Under the pieces are notes generated by a model. The model was not told the DNA's origin, made no database searches, and worked only from the letters and a program-made list of their open reading frames with translations. Of a stretch of DNA of 64,000 nucleotides, positions 461 through 45,434 are shown in pieces. The stretch covers positions 64,001 through 128,000 of the forward strand of contig JAXMNT010000008.1 in the NCBI GenBank assembly GCA_034670305.1, written 5' to 3'. The first letter of the stretch is position 1. Each line of letters starts with the position of its first letter. The translations under genes were made by a program, and so were the position numbers. Source of the DNA: Deltaproteobacteria bacterium. Lineage in GTDB: Bacteria; Myxococcota_A; Polyangia; Polyangiales; Houyiibacteriaceae.

Positions 461-3400
461 TCACAAGAGTGCGGCGAACTCGCGGCCGAACTCGAGGGGC
501 GTGGGCCGGTCTTTCCAGTTCACATTCGTGGCGGACCGCATGAGCTTGACCAACGCCGCCGGGTAGTCCGCGAACCGAGAGTCGTCTTCCATCGGGTCGC
601 GTTTCATGTGCGCGAGAATGCGTTCCCGCTTGTCGCTGATCTCATCGAAGAACGTACGCCCGGTCGTGACGTTGTAGATCGTGCCCGCCAGCGCGTAGAC
701 GTCCGCGCGCCCATCGAGTTCGACAGGATCGAGCACCTGCTCCGGCGCAATGTAGCCCGGCGTGCCCGCCACGAAACGGCCGCCGACTTCCGCGGAGACC
801 GTTTGCGCCCGCACCATGCCGAAGTCGATCAACACGGTCGCGAGCGGCGTCGCGAGCGCCGGGTCCCGGTGTTTGGCTCCGTCGAACCGCACGCCACCGC
901 TGAGGGGCAGACGCAACCAGAGGTTGGCCGGTTTGATGTCCCGATGTACCAGGCCCGCGTTGTGCAGCGCGGTGAGCCCCGCGCAGCTCTCGTGCACGAC
1001 CTTGCGCAGTTCGAACAGGGTCATGAGGCCCGCGGTCGAGTACTGCTTCAGATCGGCGCCGATCAGGTACTCGAGCACCAGGTACGGCATGTCTTCGACC
1101 ACGCCGCGGTCGATGATGTTCGCGACGTTCGGGTGGTAGAGGCCCGCGAGCGCTTTCGCTTCTTCGGTGAACGACGCGAGGATGCCTTCTCGTTCTGTGT
1201 CGCTCGCGCTCGCGAGCACATCGGCCTTCGGGATCTTCAACACGAAGTATCGGTCGGCACCGGGTTTGCGCACGAGCCAGACGCTGCCGATCCCGCCCTC
1301 GCCGAGCGCTTTGATGAGCTCGTAACCGACGATCATCTTCGGCTGCTTCTTCTTCTTCACCGGCGGCGGCGGCGGGGTGCGCTTCATCGCCGCACTCACC
1401 GACGCTTCCACGAGCGCCGACGCCGTCGGCCCAAGCGAAGCGAACCAGACATCGAGCAGCGCCAGCTCGCGCGCCCGAATGGCCCGGGCGACCACCGAGG
1501 CCATGCGGGGCGCGTTGGCCGACACCTGCGTGTTCAACGAGTCGTCCGGCGGAGAGTCCGCCGCGGGATGCAGCGCGCGGACCGGATCGGCGAGCGCGTG
1601 CTGGAGGCGCTCGGCCGCCATGACCAGATCGAGGCACTGCGCTTCGAGGTCGGGCTTCTGACCAGCCGCACCAGCGAACCCTTCGAGCGCCTTCGCGAGT
1701 CCGCCCAGCGACTCGGCCAGCTCCGTCTCGCCGGCGAAGAGCAGGGCGAGGACACGCTCGGTCTCGGTGCCCCATGCGCCATCCTCGGCCGGGCCGTCGG
1801 CCGCGGTGCCGGAGAGCGCCGCCCTCAGCTCGTCTGCCAGCCCGCAGCAGGTCTCGAGCGCGCCGTCCGCGATCATCGGCAGCGCGGTCGCGAGCTGCTG
1901 GAGAATTGCCGGCCGGTCGATGACCAGTGCCCACCAAGCCGCGAACGGACCGAGCCACGCCACGTCGTCGACCTCACCGAGCGCCGTGCCGCGGGTGGTG
2001 TCGACCAGCCGCCAGAAGAGCGCACTCAGGGCGCTGCGAAGCGAGCCGGGCATGTCCCGCGTCCCATCGACCAGACCCTCGAGTTTGCGCAGCCACAGAC
2101 AGGTGTCGTGCGCGACGCGTCCCGGTCCCGGTCCGAGTTCTTGACCCTGGCCGCACGCGTCGAGCGCGTAGCCACCGAGTTTGAGCGCAAGCACCTCGAG
2201 CGAATGTTCGAAGCTCTCGTCGTCGACGTCGTCGAGGCGCCGCTCGCGCACGATGTCGAGAAGTTCGGCCGGGGCTCGAGCCAACATCTCCCAGGTCTCT
2301 TCGAGGTTGGGTTCTGCGATGAAGTCGCCCTCGGGCCGGGTGGCGAGCATCGGCCCCCAGAGGCGCAGCGCCAGCGAGCGCGCGCACCCCTCGACCGCAT
2401 TGATGGCAGCTGCCCGTTGCCGGTTCGACCCCTCGCCCAAGACGATGCGTTTCGCTTCCGCGAAGGTCGGCCCCAGCGTCCCGGCGAACCGCGCAGCCCG
2501 CGCATCGCCTTCTTCGTCGTCGTAGTGGGCGGCGAGCCGCACCAGGTTCTCGAGCCCGGTCTCGATGTCGAGGGGGTCGCGTTCCGCGGCGTCGAGCGGA
2601 TCGGTGACCTGCAAGATCTCGAGCCACCGGCGCAAGTCGTCCACCTGGTCGGTCCGCGCGCGGCGGGCCATCAGACGAAGTCGGCCGAAGGGCGCCACCA
2701 GCTGGCCGCGCGGCGCACCACGGCGCCAGAGCGTCGCGATGCCGCGGGCGAGGGCGCGCGCCGCCACGGCCCCACCGTCGCCGGTCATGATGCGTTCGGC
2801 GAGCGGATCCCAGATGTCGCGCCGCTCGTGAAAGAGGTACGGCGTGGCCGCGGCCGCAGCCGCCAGTCCCCAGGCCTCTTCCTGTGGGGCGTCGAGAATG
2901 GACTCGAGTTCGTGCCCCAGGATCGCGAGCCGCATCGCGGGCAACGAACAGAAGGCGGTCATCGCGCGCTGCCGCAAGACGTGAGACGCCCCGTGCACCC
3001 AGTCCAGGAGCGTGCCCTCGAGCGGTTCGAACACGCCCGCCAACCGGCCGAACGCACGCGCCGCATGGATCCAGACCATGGGCTCCGGATGCAAGAGCAA
3101 CGGTTGGAGAACCTGGAGGGTGCGGCCGACCAAGTGCGGGTCGGTCATGTGCGACATGCCGCACGCAGTCGTCTCGAGGGAGCGGGCTGCGAGCACGCGC
3201 CCTCGCAGGGAACCCCGCGCCGGCCCTGCGATCACTGCCTCGAAGGTGGCTTCCGAGTTCCAGATCCACTTGCCGAGCACCGGCAACTCGAGCGCGCGGG
3301 CACCCGCTTCCCAGATGAGGATCTCCATGCGCGCCCGGGCTTCGAAGTTCTCCGCCGCGCGGAACTCGTCGGCACCTCCAAGCAACGGCACACACGCCAG

Positions 3401-3772
3401 CGCATCCTGAAGCGGACCGCACACGACGCGACTGCGCGCACCGAGGCGTGCGTGGTCGCGGCGCGTCTCGAGGCTGAGGGCGGCAGAGAGGAGCGGGGCA
3501 AGAACGGCGTCCTCGCGGCCAGCGCTCGCATCGCACCAGATGAGGACCACATCGCCCAGTTTGTCTTCGAGCAATGCCTTGAGGTCGGCGGGCTTGGCCT
3601 CCGAAGTCCACGCGAAGAGCCCATCGTCCACGACGCGCGCGGCGGCCTTCACCCCGTCCGGCAGCTCTTTCTGGAAGCCGCGCCAGGTTTCGTAGAGCCC
3701 TCCGGCGAGCGCGGGTTTGGCCGCAAGCGCCTCGGAGAGCGTGGTCAGGGCCTCTCGAACGGTCTCATCCAT
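461..3772 (-). CDS. Hanks-type Ser/Thr protein kinase, C-terminal kinase domain after a long alpha-helical N-terminal region
   Basis: LGEGGIG loop, VLK, HRDIKPAN, LIDFG, GTPGYIAPEQ, DVYALA motifs in the last ~280 aa; start placed at MDETVRE (ATG 3772). Confidence 0.92.
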   Translation of the reverse strand: MDETVREALTTLSEALAAKPALAGGLYETWRGFQKELPDGVKAAARVVDDGLFAWTSEAKPADLKALLEDKLGDVVLIWCDASAGREDAVLAPLLSAALSLETRRDHARLGARSRVVCGPLQDALACVPLLGGADEFRAAENFEARARMEILIWEAGARALELPVLGKWIWNSEATFEAVIAGPARGSLRGRVLAARSLETTACGMSHMTDPHLVGRTLQVLQPLLLHPEPMVWIHAARAFGRLAGVFEPLEGTLLDWVHGASHVLRQRAMTAFCSLPAMRLAILGHELESILDAPQEEAWGLAAAAAATPYLFHERRDIWDPLAERIMTGDGGAVAARALARGIATLWRRGAPRGQLVAPFGRLRLMARRARTDQVDDLRRWLEILQVTDPLDAAERDPLDIETGLENLVRLAAHYDDEEGDARAARFAGTLGPTFAEAKRIVLGEGSNRQRAAAINAVEGCARSLALRLWGPMLATRPEGDFIAEPNLEETWEMLARAPAELLDIVRERRLDDVDDESFEHSLEVLALKLGGYALDACGQGQELGPGPGRVAHDTCLWLRKLEGLVDGTRDMPGSLRSALSALFWRLVDTTRGTALGEVDDVAWLGPFAAWWALVIDRPAILQQLATALPMIADGALETCCGLADELRAALSGTAADGPAEDGAWGTETERVLALLFAGETELAESLGGLAKALEGFAGAAGQKPDLEAQCLDLVMAAERLQHALADPVRALHPAADSPPDDSLNTQVSANAPRMASVVARAIRARELALLDVWFASLGPTASALVEASVSAAMKRTPPPPPVKKKKQPKMIVGYELIKALGEGGIGSVWLVRKPGADRYFVLKIPKADVLASASDTEREGILASFTEEAKALAGLYHPNVANIIDRGVVEDMPYLVLEYLIGADLKQYSTAGLMTLFELRKVVHESCAGLTALHNAGLVHRDIKPANLWLRLPLSGGVRFDGAKHRDPALATPLATVLIDFGMVRAQTVSAEVGGRFVAGTPGYIAPEQVLDPVELDGRADVYALAGTIYNVTTGRTFFDEISDKRERILAHMKRDPMEDDSRFADYPAALVKLMRSATNVNWKDRPTPLEFGREFAALL

Positions 3773-3907
3773 GGACCGGCCGATCGTACACGCTCCGCGG
3801 CCGGTCCGGGAGTTCCTGGTGCGCACTGCCTGGTGCTGCTTGGTTCGGCGCACTCTTGGCGCTCGGCACGTTGGGTTTGCGAGCCTTCACGCCGAGAGTT
3901 GGGGCGC

Positions 3908-5233
3908 CTACTCCGAGGTATCGCCTGCCGCCGCAAGCTGCTCTGCGAAGGCGCGCAGGCCACCGGCGGGCTGGGCATCGAGGTAGGCCCGGGCTTCGCG
4001 TGCGGCCTGTTCGGTTCGCCCCAGCTGATGCAACGAACGCAAGCGCAGTGCGGCGAGTCGTTCGGACAGGTGGGTTGTTCGCGGGGCTTGATCCAACGCC
4101 GCGAAGGCACCGGCGGGATCATCCAGCTCGTAGAACCGGATCCGGCCCGCGTTGTACGCCGCGCGCGCATCGGTCGACGCGAGCCGCGCGTATGCATCGG
4201 CAGCCTCCGAGAACCGTCCGAGTCCTCGGAGCGCGTCGGCTTCGAGAAGCGGCCAACGGCGGCGGCGGGCTTCGGCGAGGACCGGTTCGAGACGGCCGTC
4301 GCGAAGCCAGGACTCGACGGTGCGGCGGGAGGGGCGGGGTGCGGAAGCGGAAGCGGATGCGGACGCGGACGCGGATGCCGATGCCGAATCCGAATCCGAA
4401 TCCGAATCCGATGCCGATGCCGATGCCGATGCCGAATCCGATGCCGAACCCGATGCCGAATCCGATGCCGAATCCGATGCCGAATCCGATGCCGATGCCG
4501 ATGCCGAATCCGATGCCGAATCCGATGCCGATGCCGATGCCGATGCCGATGCCGAATCCGATGCCGAATCCGAATCCGATGCCGGCGCTTGTTCCGAAAC
4601 CGCCGAGACCGCGACGCTTGCCGCACTTGCGGTTCGGGTTTGGGCGGCGGCTTCGCCGGCGGAGTCGAGGGGGGAGGAGGCGCGGGGGAGGGGCGTGGCG
4701 GCGGTGGGGATCCACATCTGGCCGGCGCGGACGTGGGCGGTTTGGCCGCGGCGGTCGACGTCGACGCTGCCTTCGTAGACGCGGACGGTGGTGCGGCCGT
4801 CTTCATGGGCGACCGAGAAGACGGTGCCGCGCACATGGACCACGGCGTCGCGGGTGCGCACCGCGAAACGTTCGCCGTCCGAGAGCGGCTTCACGTCGAA
4901 CAGCACGGTGCCGCGATCGACCGCGACTTCGCGCGACGTCTGGCTTGCGTCGACGACATCGAAGTGCGCGCCGGCGGTGGCGACGATCGAGTCGCCGGTG
5001 GGCAGCTGCACGCGCAGCGGTTCTTCGTCGGAACGCAGCTGGGTGCCTGCGAGCAGCCCCGCCGCCAGGAGGACACACGCGGCGACCGCCCAGCGCATGC
5101 GGGTGCGCACCGTCTCCCGCCGACGCGCGGCGCGCATCGCCGCGGCGATCATGGCATCCGCCCGGTCGTCTGAGAGTGGCGGCGGGGCGCTGCGCTGGGC
5201 GAGCTCGGTGAGTGCGTCGACCACGTCAGTCAC
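3908..5233 (-). CDS. FecR-domain anti-sigma factor with TM helix, Ser/Ala/Asp linker and C-terminal TPR-like region
   Basis: [17 protein letters not shown]; FecR-like [31 protein letters not shown]-like helical C-terminus; GTG 5233 overlaps the end of the sigma gene. Confidence 0.88.
4341..4584. repeat. Hexamer tract (GCCGAT/TCCGAA/GCGGAA) encoding the SA/SD linker of the anti-sigma factor
   Basis: Directly visible 6-nt periodicity. Confidence 0.95.
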
Positions 5234-5876
5234 TCCTGCCGCTCCCCGCCCGCTCGGCGAACGCGGCGATGTACGGATCCGAATCGAGCCGGCGGGCGAC
5301 CTCGGCGCGGGCATGACTCAGTCGGGAGCGCATCGCGAGGCTGGAGATGCCTTCGAGTTTGGCGGCTTCGCCCGGCTTGAGCCCTTCGACACAGCACAAG
5401 ACGAAGGCGACGCGGCGCTTCTCAGGCAACCGTTCCAGACACCGGTAGAGCCGGCGAAGGGCTTCCCGGTCCATCGCGCGCGATTCTGGGTCGATCTCGT
5501 CCGCCGGGGGCGGCACCAGGGCGAGTACCTCTTCGCGGCTGCGTTTGCGGAAGTACTTGTACGCGATGCGCACGGTGATGCGGTGCGCGAAGGTCGTCAC
5601 CTTGGAGTCGCCTCGAAACGTCGGCAGCGCCCCCGCGAGCGCGACCAGCGCATCCTGCGTGGCGTCGTCGAGATCGGCGCGAGGTCCGAGCAGGCGGTGC
5701 AGCCACCGGCGCACCTTCGGCATCAGAAGCCGCAACACGTGCTCGAGGGTTCGCGGGTCTCCGCTGCGAAGCGCCTCGAGGTCGACGCCCACGAGCCCAC
5801 CGGAGGCAGGCTCGGAAGCTTGCGCACGCACCAGGGGCGCTTCGGTGCGTTTGGGATCGAGGAAAGAGAAGACCAC
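5226..5876 (-). CDS. ECF RNA polymerase sigma factor
   Basis: Region 2 (DDATQDALVAL..FRGDSKVTTFAHRITVR) and region 4 (LERLPEKRRVAFVL..EG..AMRSRLSHAR). ORF is open from TTG 5936; GTG 5876 preferred because of the promoter-like motif at 5885-5915. Confidence 0.9.
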   Translation of the reverse strand: MVFSFLDPKRTEAPLVRAQASEPASGGLVGVDLEALRSGDPRTLEHVLRLLMPKVRRWLHRLLGPRADLDDATQDALVALAGALPTFRGDSKVTTFAHRITVRIAYKYFRKRSREEVLALVPPPADEIDPESRAMDREALRRLYRCLERLPEKRRVAFVLCCVEGLKPGEAAKLEGISSLAMRSRLSHARAEVARRLDSDPYIAAFAERAGSGRSD

Positions 5877-5884
5877 CGACAGCG

Positions 5885-5915
5885 CAGTGCCGAACGCACC
5901 GTCGAACGTTGCAAA
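5885..5915 (-). promoter_or_regulatory. Candidate ECF-type promoter copy B: TTTGCAACGTTC-N12-GGCACTG
   Basis: Same bipartite motif as 7725-7754; ends 8 nt before GTG 5876. Confidence 0.6.
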
Positions 5916-5932
5916 CGATGTGAGCGCAGTGC

Positions 5933-7717
5933 TCAAAAGATCTGTACTCCCAAGGAAACACTCGGAAAACCGCGCACGGTCCAGTCGCCGAACTCGTCGT
6001 CGTGGAGGACGGTTTCACCGAATGTGCCGTAGCTGCTCGGATCGCGGTACGCGCTGACGACATTGTAGGAGAGCCCCGCCACCAGCGCGACGCGGTCGAA
6101 CACCTGGAAGCCGACCAGCACCCTGCCCTGCGCGAGCGTCTCGGTGCCGGCATTGCCCACATCCCCGTCGCTCATCCAGTGGCCGAGCACGTCGAGGTCG
6201 ACGAAGAGGCGTTCGGACGGCGTGATGCGGGCACCCATGCCGAGTCCAAACCCGTAGACCGCGTCGTTGTCTCCTTCGGAGAACGGCCGCGCGAGCACGG
6301 AGTAGAGGTAGTGCCAATGGGCGCCTCCGTGTTTGGCGGCCACCTGGACGAAGCCTTCGGAGTTCGCGGTCACCTCCAGATGGGTCCGGCCGTTGCGCAC
6401 GATGTTGAGCAGCCCGAGCGCGAAGTCTGCGTCGTCGCTGATGTTGACCAACCCGAGCTGCACTCCGTCGAACGAGCCGCGCTGGATGTTGAGGGACCCA
6501 ATCTGCACGCCGTGGCCGCCACGGGCGAAGTTGACCCCGCTCGATGCCTGCAGCCCGCGCACGTGCCCGGTCGCGATGTTGGCGCCGGTCGAGAGCTGCA
6601 CGCCCGACACGTCCCCGTGCACGAAGTTGAATCCGGTGGTGGCCTGGGTGCCGGAGAAGTTGCCCTTCACCCAGTTGAACCCGGTCGCCAGTTGCAGTCC
6701 GCGGCTGTCCGCGCCGGCGATGTTGCCGAGGCCCGCCATCATCAGACCGCCCATGCGCCCGCGGGTCGTGTTCATTCCGAGCGAGAACGCCACCGCCGTC
6801 ATCTCTCCAGCGTGCGCCCACACGCCGAGGGAAAGGGCCCGACTCTCCCGCCCGCGGTGGAACGAGGAGCTGCCGACGTAGGGGAAGAGGTCGGCGCCGA
6901 AGAACACCCGGCGCATCTCTGCGTCGACCGGGTTGTCTGCGTCCGGGACATCGGGCGCACGCGGCGTCTCCGGCGGTGCATCCGTCGCAGGCTCGGGCAC
7001 GACCGGGATCTCGACCACCGAGTCCGGAAGCGGATCGGAGAGCGGCACCTCGATGTAGGCGTCCTCCGCGAGCGTCGCCGAAGCGTTGCGTCCGTCGGGG
7101 ACCTGCACCGAGGCGGAGCCGGTGTCGATCTCCACGCCCTCGCCTTCCACCTCCACGCGAACCCGGACCCGGATCCGGGCCGGCGGACGCCGGATCTCGT
7201 CGAGCAGACTCGACGCCACGACCGCGAACGTGCGCGGGTCGACGCTGGCCAGGGTTCCACTGAAGGGCGCGTGCCGGACCGCTTCCCCGTTCACCTCGAC
7301 CGCCCGCACCGTGGATGCATCCGCGGGACCTTCCTCCACCCAGAGCACCACGCCGGCGCCGACGAGCCGGGCCAGCGATTGCGCGTTCGACGCCCGGGTG
7401 AGGCCCGAGCCGGGGCCGACATCGGGTCCGACGAGTACCGTCATGCCGCGCCCAGCGAGCTCCATCTGCAGCGCCTCCGCGAGCTCCGGGCCGGCTGGCT
7501 CGCTGGTCGCGAGCAACACGCCACCTGGTCGACTGGCCGCGCCTTGGTGCGCCTCGGGCGCAAACACCACGTCCCCCTGGCCCGCCTCGGAGGGCACCGA
7601 CTGCGCACCGACCGCTGAGGCCCAGGCCAGGCAGCCGAGCATGGTGGTCAGACGCAACACGCCCCAGAAGGTTCCATGCACGGACCGGGCACGCATCTCG
7701 AAGTTCGCGTTCTGCAT
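5933..7717 (-). CDS. Exported/outer-membrane protein with GxQxxxxxN surface repeats (LA_2272-like) and probable C-terminal beta-barrel
   Basis: Signal-peptide-like segment ending ASAVGAQ; repeats GLQLATGFN/GTQATTGFN/GVQLSTGAN/GLQASSGVN/GVQIGSLN/GVQLGLVN; amphipathic strands and terminal Phe (VSLGVQIF). Confidence 0.75.
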   Translation of the reverse strand: MQNANFEMRARSVHGTFWGVLRLTTMLGCLAWASAVGAQSVPSEAGQGDVVFAPEAHQGAASRPGGVLLATSEPAGPELAEALQMELAGRGMTVLVGPDVGPGSGLTRASNAQSLARLVGAGVVLWVEEGPADASTVRAVEVNGEAVRHAPFSGTLASVDPRTFAVVASSLLDEIRRPPARIRVRVRVEVEGEGVEIDTGSASVQVPDGRNASATLAEDAYIEVPLSDPLPDSVVEIPVVPEPATDAPPETPRAPDVPDADNPVDAEMRRVFFGADLFPYVGSSSFHRGRESRALSLGVWAHAGEMTAVAFSLGMNTTRGRMGGLMMAGLGNIAGADSRGLQLATGFNWVKGNFSGTQATTGFNFVHGDVSGVQLSTGANIATGHVRGLQASSGVNFARGGHGVQIGSLNIQRGSFDGVQLGLVNISDDADFALGLLNIVRNGRTHLEVTANSEGFVQVAAKHGGAHWHYLYSVLARPFSEGDNDAVYGFGLGMGARITPSERLFVDLDVLGHWMSDGDVGNAGTETLAQGRVLVGFQVFDRVALVAGLSYNVVSAYRDPSSYGTFGETVLHDDEFGDWTVRGFPSVSLGVQIF

Positions 7718-7724
7718 GGTCGGT

Positions 7725-7754
7725 CAGTGCCGGTCCGCGGCGGAACGTTGCAAA
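7725..7754 (-). promoter_or_regulatory. Candidate ECF-type promoter copy A: TTTGCAACGTTC-N11-GGCACTG
   Basis: 12-nt and 7-nt blocks identical to copy B; ends 7 nt before ATG 7717. Confidence 0.6.
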
Positions 7755-7824
7755 GAAGTGACTACAGACTGCGGTCCTCGTGACCAAACTTTGACGTGAC
7801 ACTGCGCGGTGCGCCGACCACCCT

Positions 7825-8499
7825 TTGCGCGTGACCGGTTCCGAGAACGAGTCTTCGAGCGCGGCCGAGCCCACCGCCGAACGACCGAGCATGCGGGGCA
7901 CCCTGCACGCGTGGGCCGTGGTGCCCTTCGCCATCGCCGGCGCGGTGCTCGTGGCTTGGAGCGAACCGGCCGACATGTGGCCGACGCTCGGATACGCGGT
8001 GAGCGTCGCGGCGTGCTTGGGTACGAGCGCGCTCTACCACCGAGTCGATTGGGGTCCGCAGTGGTACGCGCGCATGCGCCGACTCGACCACGCGATGATC
8101 TTCGTACTCATCGTCGGGACGTGGACCCCGCTCTGTCTGGTCGCCTGCCGGGGCAGGGATGTGTCGACGCTCTTCGTGACCTTGTGCGTCATGGCCGGGA
8201 TCGGCGTCGCGATGACTTTGTTTTGGACCACCGCCCCCAAGTGGATCCGCGCCGTCGTGTACCTGGCGGTTGGGTGGATGGGGCTGTTCGTCGTGCCCGA
8301 TCTCTACGCCAGCCTGGGGGCGCAAGGGGTTGGGCTGCTCGCGGCGGGCGGCGTGCTCTACTCGGTGGGCGCGCTCGCGTATGCAATGCAGTGGCCGAAC
8401 CCGTCGCCCAAGGTCTTCGGCTACCACGAGATCTTCCATGCGTTCGTGATCCTGGCCGCCGGCGTGCACTTCGCCCTCGTGGCGACCGCAGTCATCTGA
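7825..8499 (+). CDS. Hemolysin III / PAQR family membrane protein
   Basis: SALYH, RRLDHAMIF..GTWTP, GGVLYSVGA, FGYHEIFHAFV motifs; start uncertain. Confidence 0.92.
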   Translation: MRVTGSENESSSAAEPTAERPSMRGTLHAWAVVPFAIAGAVLVAWSEPADMWPTLGYAVSVAACLGTSALYHRVDWGPQWYARMRRLDHAMIFVLIVGTWTPLCLVACRGRDVSTLFVTLCVMAGIGVAMTLFWTTAPKWIRAVVYLAVGWMGLFVVPDLYASLGAQGVGLLAAGGVLYSVGALAYAMQWPNPSPKVFGYHEIFHAFVILAAGVHFALVATAVI

Positions 8500-13612: not shown

Positions 13613-14506
13613 GTGACGCTGCCGCGCCGAGATTTCCTCCGCACCCTCGGCCTCGCGGCCGCAGCGTTCGGATGTGGGCGGCGTCGCGGTGAACCCGAGC
13701 CCAACCCCCAAGGAACCCGCGCGATGACCCGAGCCCCCGTCCTGTTCGTGGGACACGGCAGTCCCATGAACGCCATCACCGACAACCGCTGGAGCCGGGG
13801 GTTCGCATCGTTGACCGAAGCGCTGCCCACCCCGACCGCGGTGCTCGCCATCTCCGCCCACTGGTACATCGACGGCACCTGGGTGCTGGCCAGCGCGCAG
13901 CCCCGGACCATCCACGACTTCGGCGGCTTCCCGCAGGCGCTCTTCGAAGTGCAGTACCCAGCCCCCGGCACGCCGGACGTCGCCGCCCGGGTGCGCACCT
14001 TGCTCGCAGATCACGCACCCACCCTCGACGAGACGTGGGGGCTCGACCACGGCACGTGGAGCGTGCTTCGGTGGATGTACCCGGAGGCCAACGTTCCCGT
14101 GCTGCAGCTCTCGATCGATCGACGGCTGAGCCACCCGCAACATCTCGAGATCGGTCGGGCGCTCGCACCGCTGCGCGACGAAGGCGTCTTGATCGTCGGG
14201 AGCGGCAACATCACCCACAACCTGCGCCACGCCATGGGTCAGATGCGCGCGCCGCAACCGGAACAGCCCGCGTGGGCCCGTACGTTCGATGTGGACGTCG
14301 CGCGCGCGGTGCAGCAACACGACGGCCGGGCGCTCGCCGCGGTGTGGCCCGACGGCGACCACGCGCGGCTCGCCCATCCGACGCCCGATCACTACATCCC
14401 GCTGCTCTACGCGCAGGGTGCGAGTTCGACCGACGACGTCGTGACGTTTCCGATCGAGGGGTTCGATCTCGGGTCGCTCTCGATGCGCGCGATCCGCTGG
14501 GGCTGA
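13613..14506 (+). CDS. ygiD: 4,5-DOPA extradiol dioxygenase (YgiD/LigB family) with possible Tat leader
   Basis: [49 protein letters not shown]; alternative start ATG 13724. Confidence 0.9.
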
Positions 14507-14507
14507 C

Positions 14508-14770
14508 GGAAGCGGAAAGCGGAAGCGGAAGCGGAAGCGGTTGCGGAAGCGGAAGCGGAAGCGGTTGCGGAAGCGGAAGCGGAAGCCGAATCCGATGCCC
14601 AAGCCGAAGCCGAAGCCGAAGCCGAAGCCGAAGCCGAAGCCGATGCCGAAGCCGAAGCCGAAGCCGAATCCGAAGCTGAATCCGAATCCGAAGCCGAATC
14701 CGAAGCCGAAGCCGAAGCCGATCCCGAAGCCGATGCCGAATCCGATCCCGAGGCCGACTCCGAAGCCGAT
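14508..14770. repeat. Intergenic hexamer tract (GGAAGC)n then (GCCGAA/TCCGAA)n
   Basis: Visible periodicity between convergent genes. Confidence 0.95.
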
Positions 14771-14795
14771 CGCCCCGGTTCCCGAACTCTCCGGG

Positions 14796-15773
14796 CTACT
14801 CGGTGTCCACCGGGCACTCGCCTTCGCCGTTGAGGTGGCCTTGGGTGCGGAGCTGGGTGCGGACGTAGGACCACAGATCGTCCATGGGTTCGGGGGTGGT
14901 TTCGCCGGGCAGGTTCGGGAGCGGGGGGGCGCCGCCGAGTTCGTAGCGACCGTCGAACTCCACGACGTCTTCGAGTGCGATGCGTTCGAGTTCGGCGCGC
15001 GTGACTTCGCCGTTCAGATCGAGATCCGCGTCCGCGAGCCACTGGGCCAGGCGCACGACGCCGCCCTCTTCGCCTTCGGGAAATCCGTTGAAGAAGAGGT
15101 GGTCGCCATGAATGGTCAACGACGCGAGCGCGCCCCCCTGAGTGAGCGCGACGCCCGAAGGGCCGTTCTCGGACTGGCACGGCCCATAAGCAGCGGGTGC
15201 GGAGGCGCACCACCGGAAGCTGACGGCAGGCGCCGGGAAACATCCGTCGGCGTCGGGCGTTCGGCCAGCCGGAACGTCGGCGAGCGTGGAGGGACAGCTG
15301 CGGCCATCGGCGCGGGTGATGGCACCAGAGACGAGGTAGGTGCAGTCACCGGCCACCATCTCCTCGAAGTCGACCGCGTCGAGATCGACGTTGGTCGCTT
15401 CGCGCGCGCTGCCTTGGCGGTACCGGATCTCGTACCGGCCCGCGGGGGTGTCGCCGATGCGACCGAGGGACGCGCCACTCGGCGCGATGCCCGCCAAGTC
15501 GATGGCGACCTGCCCTGGCAGCCCCGCTTGGACCGTGTCGTCGGTCGCGAGCTGCAACTCGACGTCGCCGAGCACCGCCGCGTACCGATCGAAGGTGGCC
15601 GTCCAACCGTCCTGCATGTCGTCCGGCCCAGCGCCGGCTTCGATGCCGGAGACGATCGTGTCTTCGGCTTCGATGAACACGTCGATCGAACCACTTGGGC
15701 TGGTGCACGCGAACACGCACGCGAGTGCGATGACGACGAAGGAGCGGGCAGGGTTCAAGGACAACATCTTCAT
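14796..15773 (-). CDS. Hypothetical lipoprotein (Cys-containing, IHGDHLF motif, DxDxNG loop)
   Basis: Lipobox-like ACVFAC; third gene of the receptor operon. Confidence 0.75.
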
Positions 15774-15785
15774 GGCTTTCTGTTT

Positions 15786-16568
15786 CTAATCGTTCCAGGA
15801 GAGACGGGGCTGGGCCCGTGTGGTGAGCGCGGTCACGACCGCGCGGGTGGCTTGGCTGTCCTCGGCGAAGACCGCGGTCTCGCCAGGGGTGGTGGCGTCG
15901 AAGAGCGCGTCGAACTGCACGGTCGAGACCCACGCCCGCGGATCGATCGACACGCGCAAGGTGTCGCCGGCTTCGATGTCGTGATCGAAGAGTCGGGACG
16001 CGCGCACCACCACCACCCCCGGGCCGGCGGGTTCGAGGATCAAGCTCGCTCGAAAAGGGAGCACCCGCTCGCCTGCGTCCGATGGCCGGCGCGCGACGCC
16101 CTCGAGCACGACCGAACCGTCCGCCGCCGCCTCGTCCACCACGGGCTCGGTCGAGGTCAGCGGCCACCGCACACCGTAGTTCCACATCGCAGACCGCACC
16201 GTGGTCGCGAGCGCGGAGATCTCGGCGACCTCTCGCGGCGCCGGGTCGAGTCCGTCGATCCGAACCGGTTCGAGCACCTCGGCGCGCGCTTCTTCGCACA
16301 GGTCGCCGGCCTGTACGCCGGGGCAGAGCGTGAGCCCCCCGAACGCGAGCTCGGCGCGGTCGAGTTCGATCGTCCAGCCGTCCCGCCCGGCGAATGATTC
16401 GCTGGCGTCGACGCCCTGCACGACCAGGCGCGCAGGCACGCGCCCCGCACCGGTGTCCACGCACCCCAACATCCACAGACACGCGGCGCACCAAAGAGCC
16501 GTGCCCAGGGCGCGGGCGCAGAGGCGCCACGAAGCGAGCCAGTGTGCTGACGGGAAACAACCGGTCAC
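15786..16568 (-). CDS. Hypothetical lipoprotein
   Basis: GTG overlaps receptor stop (GTGA); WMLGC lipobox-like; [15 protein letters not shown] resembles [15 protein letters not shown] of the next gene; start uncertain. Confidence 0.7.
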
Positions 16569-19078
16569 AGCTGCAACTCCAGCGAGAAGAGGAACGTGCG
16601 CGGTGCGCCGGCGCTCGAGTGCCGGGCTGGCAACCGCGAGCGCGGTGCGTCGGGATCCCAGTGCGACGCGAAGTTGAACTCCGTCGCTGCGTACTCGGCG
16701 CCGAAGACGTTCTGGACTTGCGCGCCGAGCTCGACCGAACGCCAGGCGATCGAGGCCGAGAGATCGAGGAGTGCGACCGGCGCCGAGAACTCCCCGTGGG
16801 GCAACGGCCGCGCCGAGAGCTGCGTGAACCCGATGCCGGCCCGGCCGCGCACCAGGTGGCGCTGCACTTTGCCGAGGTCGCCTTGGGCGGCGAGATCGAG
16901 GCGAAACAGCCACGGCGGCACGTAGGGCAGGTTCTGTCCGGCCTCGAACGCGGGCTCTGGGTCCATCGCGTCGCCGGGCGGCGGCTCCAAGAGCTCCGCA
17001 TCGACGAAGGTCAGACTCGCGGCCGCGGTCAACCAGCTCGGCGTGCGCAGTTTGGCGAACAAGGTCGCGCCGAGCCGCCGGGTCGCGCCGACCCGTTCCA
17101 GCCGGCCTTCGCGCGGTTCGAAGGCGACGTCGTCCGCGAGGTGCGTGAAGAAGCCGACCGCGCGCAGTTCGAGCCACTCGTCGGCCACCAACCCCAAGCC
17201 GAGATCGGCCGAACGGACTTTGGTGAACGGGGCGCGCTCCCCGTCGTCGAGGGTGCGTGCTTGCGGGGATCGAAACCCTTCGCCGTAGGACGCAAAGAAC
17301 GAGAGCGCATCGGTGGGTCGCACCACGAGGCTCGTGCGCGGGCCGGCGGCCACGCCGAATGCGGTGCGGCGGTGTCCGACGAGGGTGGTCGGTTCTCGAA
17401 ACGCAGGCACCCGGTTGCCGAGTCGATCGTCGACCTCGTAGAAGAGCACGTCCGCGCGCGCGCCGACCCGAAGCGTGAGCCACCGATCCACATCGAGGTC
17501 GAGGTCGCCATACAGACCGATGTCGGTTGCACGGATGTCCGCGTCCACCCGCTCGTCCCAGACTTCGTTCTGCGGCGCCTGGAGCAGCGATTGATCCTGC
17601 TCAATCGAATCCACCCGCGTCTGCAGGCCGACCTCGACCCGCGCATCCAGCCAGCGGGTGGGTTCGTACGCGCGGGTCCGGTGACTGGCGGATGCACCGA
17701 GGGAGACGGTGCGGTTGCGCTGTTCGATGAGGTCCCCGCGGCCAACCCACGCGGGCTCCACCGTCGAACGTTCGACGAACCCAGTGAAGTTCTGCTGAAC
17801 TCGAAACTGGTCGTACTGGCCGAAGACCGAGAACGAGGTGTTGCTCCCGTCTGCCGCTCGGTGCGTCGCACTGGCAAGCAATGCGAACCGCCCGGCCGCC
17901 GCGTTCTGGTTCTGCGCGGTCGCGAGATCGTAGCTCTCGTAGAAGCCCACCCGGCCGGCCTGTACGTCGTCGCGCCGCACCACACCGGCGAGTCCTGCAC
18001 GCACCCCGTGGGCGAGACCGGTCAAGCGCACATGCCACGCCCCGGTTCGGAACCCGTGCTGCACGATCGCGGAGGCGCCGAGGCTGCCGCGGTTGTCGCC
18101 GAACCCATTGCTGCGTCGCACCTGCACCGCGCCGAAGGTCTCGTTCGAGAGGCCGCGCGGCGCGAAAATCGCGAGCTGACGGAACGCGCCGAAGGAACCG
18201 TACGACGTGCGGGAGAGGAGCCCGCGCCGTTCGATCCCGAGCGAGAGTTCGATCGACCCAGCCACCGCGAAGTCGCCCTGCTCTGGATCGGTGACGCCTT
18301 CGGTCACCCGCATCGAACGCACGACCTCCGGAATCAGCCAACCGAGATCCGCATACCCCTGACCGTGAATGTGCGAGGGCATGTTCAGCGGCATCGAGTC
18401 CAGCCGCAGCGCGAGATCCTGACCATGCTCCGCGTCGAACCCGCGCAGCGAGATCCGGTGGCCGACCGCGTCGCCTTCGGTGCGCGTCAGAAAGAGCCCC
18501 GGCGCCGCCCGCAGGATGTCGGCTCCTTCGGAGACCGGTGTCGCGATGAGGTCCGCCCCCTCGAACTCGAACGAACCGCCGCCACGCTCCCCGTCTCGCG
18601 CCGGCACGACCTCGACCACCGCCGCCGCTCCGAAGCCCTCGAGCTCCTCCAACCCCTCGAGGTCCCACTCGGCCTGCCCAACGTCACCATCGGAAGCGGA
18701 CTCGGAAGCGGAAGCGGACTCGGAAGCGGAACCGGACTCGGAAGCGGAAGCAGACTCGGACTCGGAAGCGGACTCGGAAGCGGACTCGGAAGCGGACTCG
18801 GACTCGGAAGCGGAAGCGGAAGCGGCATCGGCGTCGGCTTCGGCGTCGGCATCGGCTTCGGCTTCGGCATCGGCTTCGGCTTCGGCGTCGGCTTCGGCTT
18901 CGGCTTCGGCTTCGGCTTCGGCTTCGGCATCGGCCTCAGAACCGACGCCCGCATCTCCGACGCCCGCATCTCCGACGCCCGCATCTCCGACGCCGGCATC
19001 CTGCGCGCCTGCGATCGGACCCCAAGCCAGCGCTCCAACGAGCACCACGCCCCATGCAACTGTCCGCCACCGACACAC
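16565..19078 (-). CDS. TonB-dependent receptor
   Basis: Signal peptide; plug [49 protein letters not shown] terminus. Confidence 0.92.
18690..18936. repeat. Hexamer tract encoding EA/SA/SE linker in the receptor N-terminus
   Basis: Visible (TCGGAA/GCGGAC/TCGGCT) periodicity. Confidence 0.95.
18942..19001. repeat. 15-nt tandem repeat x4 encoding (DAGVG)n
   Basis: CCGACGCCCGCATCT x3 plus one degenerate copy. Confidence 0.95.
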
Positions 19079-42534: not shown

Positions 42535-42755
42535 GCCCGGAGGGTCGCACGACACGCGGGCAAGACTCCATGACCGGGTCGTGGCGGCTCGGCCCTTGCC
42601 CGTGCCACTGGTTTCTGGGTCCGCAAGCAGGGCCCCACCCGAAACTCAGCCCGCGCCCCACGAAATCATGCGCCGTACTCGGCGCGTCCGCGTTCTCCCT
42701 TCGCACCCCCTCCTTTCTCGTGTCGGCTGCCCGTTGGCACAGAGGTGTGACGATC

Positions 42756-45434
42756 ATGTCCTTCCGCCACTTGCTGATGCCCCTGCTTCTCACCACGTCT
42801 CTCGCGCAGGCCCAGGGACCGGGGACCGACGGGGGTGCCGAAGCCGGAGTCGATGCCGAAGTCGATGCTGGAGCCGATGCCGATGCCGAAGCCGATGCCG
42901 ACCCCGAAGCCGATGCCGAAGCCGAAGCCGAAGCCGAAGCCGAAGCCGAAGCCGCAGCCGAAGCCGAAGCCGACCCCGAAGGCGAAGCCGACCCCGAAGC
43001 CGTGGCCGAAGCCGAAGCCGATCCCGAAGGCGACGCCGACCCCGAAGGCGACGCCGACCCCGAAGGCGACGCCGACCCCGAAGGCGACGCCGACCCCGTG
43101 CTTCGGCCACCTCTGGTCCGCGAGGGGCAGGGTGAGGCGGCGTACCCCGAGGGCGCGGAGATGGGCGGGCGGGTGTTGTTGGTGCTGGACGTGGCGGCAG
43201 ACGGCACGGTGGCGGAGGCGCGGCGGCTCGATGTCCAGGCCGAGGAGAACTCGGAAGCCCTGTTCGTCGAGCAGGCGCTCGAGTACGCGCGCCGACTTCG
43301 GTTCGAGCCGGCCACGCGCGATGGGGCGCCCGTCGCCAGCCGGATTCGGTTTGAGGTGGTGTTCCCCGCGCCCCCACCGCCGACGCCAACGCCGCCGAAC
43401 GCGCATCTCGATCCGACCGCCGGAGCCGAAGACGCCTCCGAAGACGCGGCCGATTTCGAAGCGCCGCTCCAGGCGACGTCGTCGATGAACCTCGAGGGCG
43501 AGCGGCTGCGGCTGCGGCCCTACGCCTCCACCGGCGAGCTGCTCAACGCGGGTTCGGGTTTCTACGTCGTCCAGCACGCGGGGGGCGGCAAAGCCAACCA
43601 GTACTTCTTGCGCGGGTTCGACGCCGACCATGGCTCCGACGTCGCGCTCTTCGTCGATGGCGTGCCTGCGAACTGGCCGAGCCACGGACACAGTCAGGGG
43701 TACACCGAGCTGCACTGGGTGATCCCCGAACTCATCGAACGCATGGAGGTCCGCAAGGGTCCGTACTTCGCGGAACTCGGGGACTTCGCGACCGCCGGCG
43801 CGATCAACCTGGTGCTGCGAGAGGATGTCGAGGAGAGTTCCTTCACGTTGGGCGGCGGCACGTACGGAACGTTCCGCGGCGTCGCACTCGTCGCCCCGCG
43901 CACGACTCTCGCGGTGAAACCATTGCTCGCCGCGGAGGTCTACGGGACGAATGGGCCCTTCCAGCGCAGCGAAGATCTGCGGCGGGTGAACCTCTTCGGC
44001 CGCGCCAGCGCGCGCTTCCCCGGCGGCACCACGCTGAGCCTCACCGGCACCAGCCACCTCTCCACGTGGAACGCGTCGGGGCAACTGCCGCTGCGTGCGG
44101 TGAACGCGGGCACGCTCGACCGGTTCGGTACCCTCGACCCGGACGAAGGCGGCGCGACGCAGCGGCACGGCGTGTACGGCCGGTTGACCGTGCCCACCTC
44201 GGGCGGCGACGAAGGCGAAGTAAGCGTGCTCGGGTACCTCACCCACCACCGCTTCGATCTCTACTCGAACTTCACCTACGCGACCGAGCGGCCCGACATC
44301 GGCGACATGATCCATCAGTCGGATCGGCGCACCGCGGTGGGGCTCGACGCCCGCTACCGGGTGCGGCACCGCCTGGGCCCAGCAACGCTTCGCAGCACCG
44401 TCGGCGCCCAGGGGCGGCTCGATCTGATCGACAACGCGCTGGCGGAATCACCGGACCGGATCGACGGCGCCCGCAGCATCGATGCGGACATCGGCCAAGC
44501 GAGCCTGGGGTTGTTCCTGAGCGAAGCGCTGCACTGGCGCTGGCTTCGCGTCGTCGGAGGCGCACGCATCGACTCGTTCTCGTTCGATGTGCAGGACCGG
44601 CTCGGCGGCGAAGGCACGAGCGGCCAGCGGCAAGCGCTGCTGGTCAGCCCGAAAGCCAGCGTCGTGATTCAGGCGCACGAGACGCTGCGCCTCTTCGCGA
44701 ACTTCGGCTCGGGCTTTCACAGCAACGACGCGCGGGGTGTCGTGCGCCGCGACGCGATGCGCGCGAACGCGCTCACCCGCGGGCTCGGCTACGAACTCGG
44801 CGCGCGCCTCGAACTCGCGGACCACGTCACGTTCTCCGCGGCCGGGTTCGTCCTCGACCTCGACTCCGAGACGGTCTGGGTCGGCGACGTGGGCACGACC
44901 GAAGCCCGCGGCGCCACGCGGCGGGTCGGCGTCGAAGCGGATCTCCAGGTGCAGGCGCTCCCCTGGCTTCGGTTCGGACTCGACGCGACGTGGACGAACT
45001 CCACGTTCGTCGACAACCCGGCGAACGCGAACTCGGTCGCGCTCGCGCCGACCTTCCTCCTCAACAGCGAGGTGGTCGTGCAACACCGGGAGACCGGCGT
45101 GAGCGGGCGGCTTGGGTTGCTCTTCGTGGCCGATCGACCCGCGACCGAAGACGGCTTCCTCGAGGCGCAGGGTTTCACGCGGCTCGACGCGTCGGTGCAG
45201 TGGGAACACGAGCGGGTGGGACTGAGTGTCTCCGCGCAGAACCTGCTCAACACCGAGTGGCGGCAGGCGCAGTTCGCCACCACCGCACGGCTGCCTGGAG
45301 AGACCTCGGCCGCGTCCTGTCCCGAAGGCACCCGCGCAGTGGAAGAAGGCGGCGGCTTCACAGGATGCGAAGACATTCACTTCACGCCGGGCTGGCCCAT
45401 CCACATCCTGGCCACCGCAACCGTGAAGTTCTGA
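42756..45434 (+). CDS. TonB-dependent receptor with fused TonB C-terminal-like domain
   Basis: [38 protein letters not shown] (TonB_C-like); plug [28 protein letters not shown]; terminal Phe. Confidence 0.92.
42835..43097. repeat. (GCCGAN)n tract and 18-nt (DPEGDA) repeats in the receptor N-terminus
   Basis: Visible periodicity. Confidence 0.95.

Follow-up and report, generated by a model that had tools for sequence, protein, structure and literature searches.

How a FecR-type anti-sigma factor might receive a signal from the outer membrane when no TonB-dependent transducer is encoded beside it is the question raised by a three-gene locus of a Deltaproteobacteria bacterium (Polyangiales; assembly GCA_034670305.1). 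The locus lies in a stretch of 64,000 nucleotides of contig JAXMNT010000008.1 (positions 64,001 to 128,000 of the forward strand; hereafter the window), from a genome of 7.9 Mb and 96% completeness. Three open reading frames (ORFs) run in the same orientation on the minus strand, at 5933-7717, 5226-5936 and 3908-5314 (longest-ORF coordinates), and encode an exported barrel-stalk protein, a sigma factor of the extracytoplasmic function (ECF) type and a predicted anti-sigma factor with FecR and tetratricopeptide repeat (TPR) regions. The reading favoured here, which we hold to be reasonably likely from comparative sequence evidence, is that the three genes form a TonB-independent cell-surface signalling relay, in which the N-terminal domain (N-domain) of the barrel-stalk protein would bind the TPR region in place of an STN-STN contact. 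The broader proposition, that the barrel protein contacts the anti-sigma factor in some role, with the feedback alternative weighed below counted in, can be held with good confidence.

The barrel-stalk protein (5933-7717; 594 aa, with alternative ATG starts at 7696 or 7639) begins with a hydrophobic N-terminus up to AVGA|Q, predicted from sequence and hydropathy to be a signal peptide of residues 1-38 ending in AVGA (7604-7717); it continues through a Pro/acidic stretch and ends in GVQIF. Five G-x-[QM]-x5-N repeat units recur every 16 residues (at 324, 340, 356, 372 and 388). The match to the NCBIfam LA_2272 repeat (NF047436) had an E-value of 3e-5 and 23.7 bits against a cut-off of 25 bits, which relatives of the protein exceed (34.5 and 61.8 bits), and the Atlas score for LA_2272 likeness was 0.97. 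A Pfam scan of the protein gave no match, including none to STN, Plug or the TonB barrel. AlphaFold modelling with 21 sequences gave three domains, mostly at pLDDT 85-97: the alpha/beta N-domain (residues 66-176; 7190-7522), a beta-helix carrying the GxQxxxxxN repeats (residues 269-440; 6398-6913) and an OmpA-type 8-stranded barrel (residues 444-593 in the model; 444-594, or 5936-6388, with the terminal Phe). Between the N-domain and the beta-helix lie a conserved beta-rich segment (residues 181-215, RIRVRVRVEVEG...; 7073-7177), modelled at low confidence, with a mean identity of 57% among nine close relatives against 24% for the linker, and the flexible Pro/acidic linker itself (residues 216-265; 6923-7072), with pLDDT<50 over 220-263. 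The whole protein was modelled at a mean pLDDT of 80 and a pTM of 0.46; given these values, the relative placing of the domains is not fixed. In VIA searches the beta-helix matched a bacterial antifreeze beta-helix (3p4g; Z 16.7, rmsd 1.9, 171 aligned), and the barrel matched OprF (Z 14.6, rmsd 2.5, 123 aligned) and NspA (Z 14.4, rmsd 2.5, 136 aligned). Sequence and model thus agree with the initial annotation of an exported protein with an N-terminal domain, Pro-rich linker, repeats and a barrel-like C-terminus ending in Phe, and both the beta-helix and the barrel on which that annotation had been made to depend were present in the models.

The loops of the barrel are long after strands 3, 5 and 7, and only short turns follow strands 2, 4 and 6. 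In OmpA-type barrels both termini are periplasmic, and because this topology and the loop pattern together place them there, the beta-helix, linker and N-domain are predicted to be periplasmic. Within the repeat protein, first read as the outer-membrane receptor, the repeats are therefore an unlikely receptor surface on the modelled topology. An autotransporter reading, with the repeats as a surface passenger, was set aside because the bore of an 8-stranded barrel is too narrow to let a polypeptide chain through. The outer loops are conserved at 33-56%. The N-domain, modelled alone at a pLDDT of 92.7, resembled TolB-N, PelC and CsgG weakly. Its best Foldseek matches were GNA1162 and PelC (both E 7e-5), FlgT and TolB (E 1e-3), with rmsd 6-8 and TM 0.36-0.49; a VIA search gave Z<=8.9 for common alpha/beta arrangements, with TolB (Z 7.3) amid unrelated rows, and the Atlas pointer to CsgG/LpoB (0.87) is a mere lead. 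No STN-type structure was among the fold matches listed for it by Foldseek or VIA.

The middle gene (longest ORF 5226-5936) was confirmed to encode an ECF sigma factor by matches to Sigma70_r2 (E 2e-14) and r4_2 (E 1e-12). A conserved promoter-like motif at 5887-5913 makes GTG 5876 or GTG 5831 its likely start, which spaces genes 1 and 2 more widely than their longest ORFs would. Of the three tightly packed, co-oriented genes first described, the co-orientation stands, and the packing of the first two is looser than stated. The predicted anti-sigma factor most likely starts at GTG 5233 (3908-5233), because its relatives begin there. A short cytoplasmic piece is followed by a transmembrane segment (5036-5092; residues 75-93, hydropathy 1.83), a FecR domain (about 4703-5032; residues 98-184, E 2e-13), an S/A/D-rich linker (about 4337-4702) and a TPR region (about 3929-4336). 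This architecture is as initially proposed, with the TPR part weak in the window protein and clearer across relatives: the whole protein gave no Pfam TPR match, the C-terminal region searched alone matched TPR_16 (E 0.006), and 13 of 19 aligned relatives matched TPR_14. The Gly-Thr pair of the FecR domain (G163-T164; 4823-4828) was invariant in all 14 aligned anti-sigma factors, and GTxF was found in 16 of 23 wider relatives; self-cleavage at this Gly-Thr, the counterpart of the site described in FoxR, is presumed from its conservation. The linker between FecR and TPR comprises about 122 aa and varies from 35 to 149 aa across 23 relatives; the length of some 80 aa first assigned to it describes its S/A/D core alone. 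The S/A/D make-up was rejected as a functional feature, since composition was not conserved among these relatives. Low-complexity repeats (Ser-Ala/Ser-Asp in one frame) at 4350-4580, within this linker, recur intergenically at 14500-14800, which suggests repeat expansion.

Conserved adjacency, on which the initial proposal had been made to hinge, was found at two scales. The family to which the barrel-stalk protein belongs had matches in at least 194 of 401 genomes across the order (this tally and the FecR tally include the unpublished genomes G387 and G123, which enter no other result). The order barrel-sigma-FecR, with the sigma and FecR genes immediately downstream of the barrel gene, was kept in 9/9 assessable genomes with a window-type N-domain, a tenth being interrupted by a contig end. 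A wider survey covered 108 loci, namely 100 stretches chosen by rank and contig position from 150 listed of about 400 matches, plus 8 loci; full flanks were available in 91, and neighbours were counted within a cut-off of about 3 kb. A sigma factor and a TPR-ended anti-sigma factor were present in 72 of the 77 full-flank loci with an N-domain (in the remaining five, one sigma lay just beyond the cut-off and four loci had none), in 0/11 of the N-less loci, and in none of the three caspase-headed copies, all of which had a sigma factor and a non-TPR anti-sigma factor instead. Among the 40 loci fetched after profile building, the corresponding full-flank counts were 23/25 with an N-domain and 0/7 without. 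FecR was found in just 9/108 family anti-sigma factors, the others being TPR-only; the TPR is therefore the constant periplasmic part. The caspase (Peptidase_C14) head was seen on the repeat-barrel chassis at L009, L101, L115 and L158, and in proteins P0024, P0028, P0030 and P0031.

A second line of evidence concerns which part of the barrel-stalk protein follows the sigma factor. Beside the closest paralogues of the anti-sigma factor lie mini-barrels that lack the repeats but retain the N-domain, and upstream there is often a gene for a small lipoprotein. In FastTree phylogenies, the FecR-linked sigma factors of the order fall into several clades; the window sigma is one of the 23 rows of a clade (support 100) in which cassettes with repeat-bearing proteins and with mini-barrels occur together, and the TPR-only sigmas form a clade apart. 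When an N-domain profile built from close repeat-bearing N-domains alone was used for scoring, 10/10 mini-barrel N-domains reached 11.8-65 bits, against <=10.6 bits for 81 N-domains of TPR-only repeat proteins. The mini-barrel N-domains also grouped with window-type N-domains (SH-aLRT 99), a split that matches the sigma tree. The chassis is thus common to the window and the TPR-only family, and the head is common to the sigma clade. Within the barrel-stalk gene the barrel is nearer to the sigma gene and the head is the most distant part; that the head nevertheless follows the sigma clade is the pattern a matched signalling domain would show, so that a signalling role of the N-domain is indirectly supported. 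Because most family members have TPR-only anti-sigma factors, the comparison points to the TPR, and not to FecR or the S/A/D linker named in the initial annotation, as the probable partner surface. A separate widespread class was noted among the FecR-linked sigma factors, in which FecR proteins of 1,300-1,700 aa directly follow a sigma of their own clade (G000:C1:326185-330459; L042-L044, L047, L050-L052).

The same chassis was then found behind a different head. In a homologue (P0027) the repeats and barrel were retained, and among annotated plasmid records six were matched and four loci were examined, three of them from the Bacteroidota genera Persicobacter and Hymenobacter. Two Persicobacter loci encode a sigma factor, an anti-sigma factor with FecR and FecR_C, and then a protein of the order STN(-like)-CarbopepD_reg_2-repeat-barrel; one Hymenobacter locus encodes a sigma factor, a GIN-domain protein, FecR, an STN ORF and then the chassis. 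The STN E-values in these three loci were 3e-5 (below the cut-off) and 4e-11, the third showing a FecR_C-like match at 0.08. By BLAST, the Bacteroidota chassis matched the window protein across helix and barrel (E 3e-17). A Bacteroidota-type query gave 934 clusters at E<=1e-30, and among 75 chassis proteins (the query plus every second of the best 150 matches, examined for their domains) STN was present in 46 and CarbopepD_reg_2 in 71 at E<=0.01. Two diverse alignments, used for locus searches, yielded no conserved seed. A canonical STN head beside a canonical anti-sigma factor is the strongest sign that the chassis may act as a transducer.

The favoured relay would then operate as follows. 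The 8-stranded barrel would be embedded in the outer membrane, and the beta-helix, linker and N-domain would extend into the periplasm, where the N-domain would bind the TPR end of the inner-membrane anti-sigma factor. FoxA and FoxR bind each other through their STN domains, which shields the anti-sigma factor from proteolysis (PMC11637429, in the part available). By analogy, N-domain contact would protect the anti-sigma factor at rest; its loss would lead to anti-sigma proteolysis and release of the sigma factor, which would direct transcription both of its own operon and of a gene for a DUF6268 barrel. The relay would most likely be fed either by a ligand or partner that meets the barrel at its three long outer loops, or by altered membrane spacing sensed through the stalk and linkers. 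As a more tentative extension, falling somewhat short of probable, the beta-helix/8-stranded barrel may represent a second, TonB-independent class of transducer in Myxococcota and Bacteroidota, signalling without transport or plug via a rigid periplasmic stalk, and bearing swappable periplasmic heads matched to the anti-sigma factor. The matching of heads (STN with FecR_C, TolB-N-like with TPR, caspase with a third type) is part of that joint claim and equally tentative.

Several observations weigh against the relay. The chassis tree (FastTree), from which one short ORF was omitted, puts the N-less rows into a single clade of 9 and one row on its own, so that the N-domain was probably lost independently about twice; a sigma factor is missing beside four separate N-bearing rows. 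Alignment of the TPR regions between the two anti-sigma clades is very poor (hhalign probability 6%), whereas the two N-domain types align at 96.5% probability. The mini-barrel set, 10 of 16 loci found by iteration from the window profile, favours the outcome obtained with it. No ligand site was found in the 8-stranded barrel, which has no plug to move. The Bacteroidota synteny comprises three loci of two genera, one with STN as a separate ORF, and the fourth locus (L200) has a short chassis without a sigma factor. An exbD gene or TonB receptor was found near 28/108 family loci, and the motif upstream of the barrel gene, described next, also fits a plain regulated output.

A promoter-like motif was found 5' of the barrel gene (TGCAACG-N15-GCAC, 7727-7752) and 5' of the likely sigma start (TGCAACG-N16-GCAC, 5887-5913), both on the minus strand. 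The pattern TGCAA[CT]G-N16-18-[GC]CAC (summary form TGCAACG-N16-SCAC), defined from the same sites, occurred 14 times in the 105,729 bp of 10 close loci plus the window, where shuffled sequence averaged 0.5; the spacer was 16 in 13/14 hits, and 8/10 loci, of which one is near-identical to the window and two come from one genus, had a hit, mostly before the barrel and sigma genes. Distant TPR-only loci were not enriched (4 hits in 629,530 bp). When a weight matrix of 10 sites from other genomes was scanned over the window genome, the highest score (25.7) fell on contig 65, followed by the two sites in the window (24.3 and 23.7), and the reversed genome peaked at 20.0. On contig 65 the site stands before a gene for a DUF6268 barrel (L131:810-1694; G000:C65:8206-9093, minus strand), homologues of which occur in 7/87 other genomes of the family; the motif lies 5' of the gene in G160 and G191, which belong to a single genus and both carry the module, and is absent 5' of it in one further module-bearing genome, G287, as well as in four module-less genomes. 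We infer that the motif is the promoter of the window sigma, which is predicted to autoregulate its operon and to have one target, the DUF6268 barrel. The fourth-ranked site (G000:C60:34641, minus strand; score 21.8), which may be due to chance, lies 265 bp before a 229-aa gene that, we presume, resembles norC.

These sites sit well with an alternative that we regard as unlikely, namely that the barrel protein, as an envelope tether or a structural protein of the outer membrane, is a mere regulated output, that the anti-sigma factor senses via FecR or TPR, and that regulator and target simply stay linked. A predicted sigma promoter stands directly upstream of both this and a second barrel gene, and the existence of N-less copies and of sigma-less copies indicates that the chassis can function alone. 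However, a plain output leaves unexplained that the N-domain tracks the anti-sigma clade while the barrel is exchanged, that an STN head stands beside FecR_C anti-sigma factors in Bacteroidota, and that caspase heads pair with non-TPR anti-sigma factors.

It is improbable to a similar degree that the contact is real and reports outer-membrane assembly or envelope spacing, such that the inserted barrel switches its own sigma off. The predicted autoregulation, the second predicted target being likewise a barrel, the rigid stalk with two long linkers and the lack of a transport channel are all consistent with such feedback, as is the failure to find any conserved neighbouring lipoprotein or enzyme around window-type loci. 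On the other hand, mini-barrel paralogues often adjoin a small lipoprotein gene, and the many paralogous cassettes with separate sigma clades fit many specific signals better. The window genome has 10 FecR matches and other Polyangiales genomes up to about 30. Five other cassettes of the window genome combine a sigma factor, a TPR-ended anti-sigma factor and an exported, barrel-like protein of 310-350 aa; in a search of these five proteins, the N-domain had best E-values of 1e-7, 9e-5, 3e-4, 2e-3 and 1e-2, and is clear in one, moderate in two to three and weak in the rest. An additional anti-sigma factor of this genome (G000:C7:121291-122949, minus strand) has FecR and ends in a weak TonB_C-like domain (E 0.002), and its neighbouring sigma is the one in the genome most like the window's by phmmer.

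More doubtful still is the suggestion that the relay depends on TonB-ExbBD, or on a distinct TonB-dependent receptor acting in trans, with the barrel-stalk protein as an adaptor. An exbD gene was found in 24/108 loci and a TonB receptor in 18/108, often as receptor-exbB-exbD-tonB directly upstream, and the full order receptor-exbB-exbD-tonB-repeat barrel-sigma-TPR anti-sigma recurred in L077, L109, L119, L121, L123, L128, L160, L161, L185, L192 and L195. Neither gene was present near any of the nine FecR-type loci, however; the linkage is confined to TPR-only clades, where these TonB-system neighbours may be regulated targets or partners, and the barrel has no plug. The initial description of the module as TonB-free accordingly suits the window clade and is too broad for the family as a whole. 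No TonB receptor lies inside the three-gene unit, as first stated, and the two elsewhere in the window (16565-18652, 8.8 kb from the module, and 42747-45434, plus strand) gave no STN match. At least nine Plug matches were among those listed for the genome, its only STN is in PilQ, and FecR_C had no match in it at 96% completeness; it thus lacks an STN-bearing receptor, despite the abundance of FecR in Polyangiales. That a kinase controls the sigma, as is proposed for ECF267, is highly improbable here for the Ser/Thr kinase encoded alongside (461-3853): the gene follows the anti-sigma gene on the same strand and ECF267 contexts contain 1-3 kinases, but kinase matches occurred in only 2/108 family loci (neither FecR-type), in 1/19 paralogous anti-sigma stretches and in 0/9 of the closest loci.

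This kinase gene (minus strand) encodes 1,100 aa, of which the N-terminal part is long and helical and the kinase domain is C-terminal, and was rejected as part of the module because its adjacency is not kept beside close relatives. For the same reason, a divergent gene for an HlyIII/PAQR (TrhA-like) membrane protein (7825-8499, plus strand), 108 bp from the module start, was rejected. Further away, the TonB-dependent receptor of 695 aa at 16565-18652 is followed by two exported proteins without family matches (14796-18652, minus strand); these are likely lipoproteins, and the three genes likely form an uptake operon. Beta-helical GIN/DUF2807 or DUF4097 proteins adjoin cassettes in Polyangiales and Hymenobacter (L117, L089, L091, L103, L201), and Cys-rich DUF7107 proteins lie upstream of others (L006, L088); all are candidate surface partners or targets.

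FecR-type cell-surface signalling has so far been tied to TonB-dependent transporters (PMC11637429 and PMC7826278, in the parts available), and ECF267-type anti-sigma factors had been left without an input (PMC7826278, likewise), for which the present module names a candidate partner. With this partner, a candidate N-domain/TPR interface, a promoter motif and a target gene, the question becomes testable, the STN-bearing form in cultured Persicobacter or Hymenobacter. If the relay is real, a small barrel can carry information inward even without a plug, and LA_2272-type repeat proteins gain a role.

Among known systems, NsrA-CyaK of Sinorhizobium meliloti reportedly also signals independently of TonB. 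There too an outer-membrane beta-barrel is needed for signal passage across the envelope, but the NsrA barrel is far larger (residues 600-1200) and the output is an adenylate cyclase, not a sigma factor (PMC7529298, part available). In DdvS-DdvA of Myxococcus xanthus, an ECF sigma is likewise held by an anti-sigma factor that is transmembrane and bears periplasmic TPR; DdvA, however, has zinc anti-sigma and CHAT domains, and neither FecR nor a barrel partner is mentioned in the available part of PMC11506125. The LA_2272 surface-repeat proteins (NF047436) share the repeat, but their name implies surface exposure and no signalling role, whereas the repeat here is predicted to be periplasmic, before an 8-stranded barrel.

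Closer parallels exist among FecR-linked ECF groups. As far as the available part of PMC7826278 goes, ECF267, from Sorangium and Chondromyces, has an anti-sigma factor that is FecR-like and fused to TPR at +1, no FecA-like or TonB-dependent receptor, 1-3 kinases nearby, no conserved promoter and no named outer-membrane partner. Compared by description, the window module shares with it the FecR-TPR anti-sigma factor at +1, the absence of a TonB receptor and the myxobacterial order, and differs in its conserved promoter motif, its barrel partner and a kinase that is not conserved. The initial claim of an undescribed system was therefore too wide, FecR-TPR anti-sigma factors without a TonB receptor being covered by ECF267; for the barrel-stalk partner, no paper was found in a search outside which most subscription papers and parts of the ECF supplement lay. 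The Persicobacter and Hymenobacter relatives recall ECF239/ECF240, with a sigma factor, FecR plus FecR_C and an STN-CarbopepD_reg_2 protein at +2, but that protein is described as a TonB-dependent receptor in those groups (PMC7826278, same part), and here it ends in the beta-helix/8-stranded chassis.

The nearest functional comparison is with FecI-FecR-FecA, FoxI-FoxR-FoxA and Pup, which, in the available part of PMC11637429, share with the window module an ECF sigma, a single-transmembrane FecR anti-sigma factor with the Gly-Thr motif, an outer-membrane barrel encoded alongside, whose N-terminal domain is periplasmic, and, as predicted here, induction of that partner. Unlike in these systems, a plug-less 8-stranded barrel replaces the TonB-dependent transducer, an alpha/beta N-domain stands for STN and TPR for the STN-like FecR_C, and a beta-helix stalk and a predicted autoregulated promoter are added. 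Judged from its sequence, the module would therefore work like Fec and Fox, yet it fails three defining features of that signalling.

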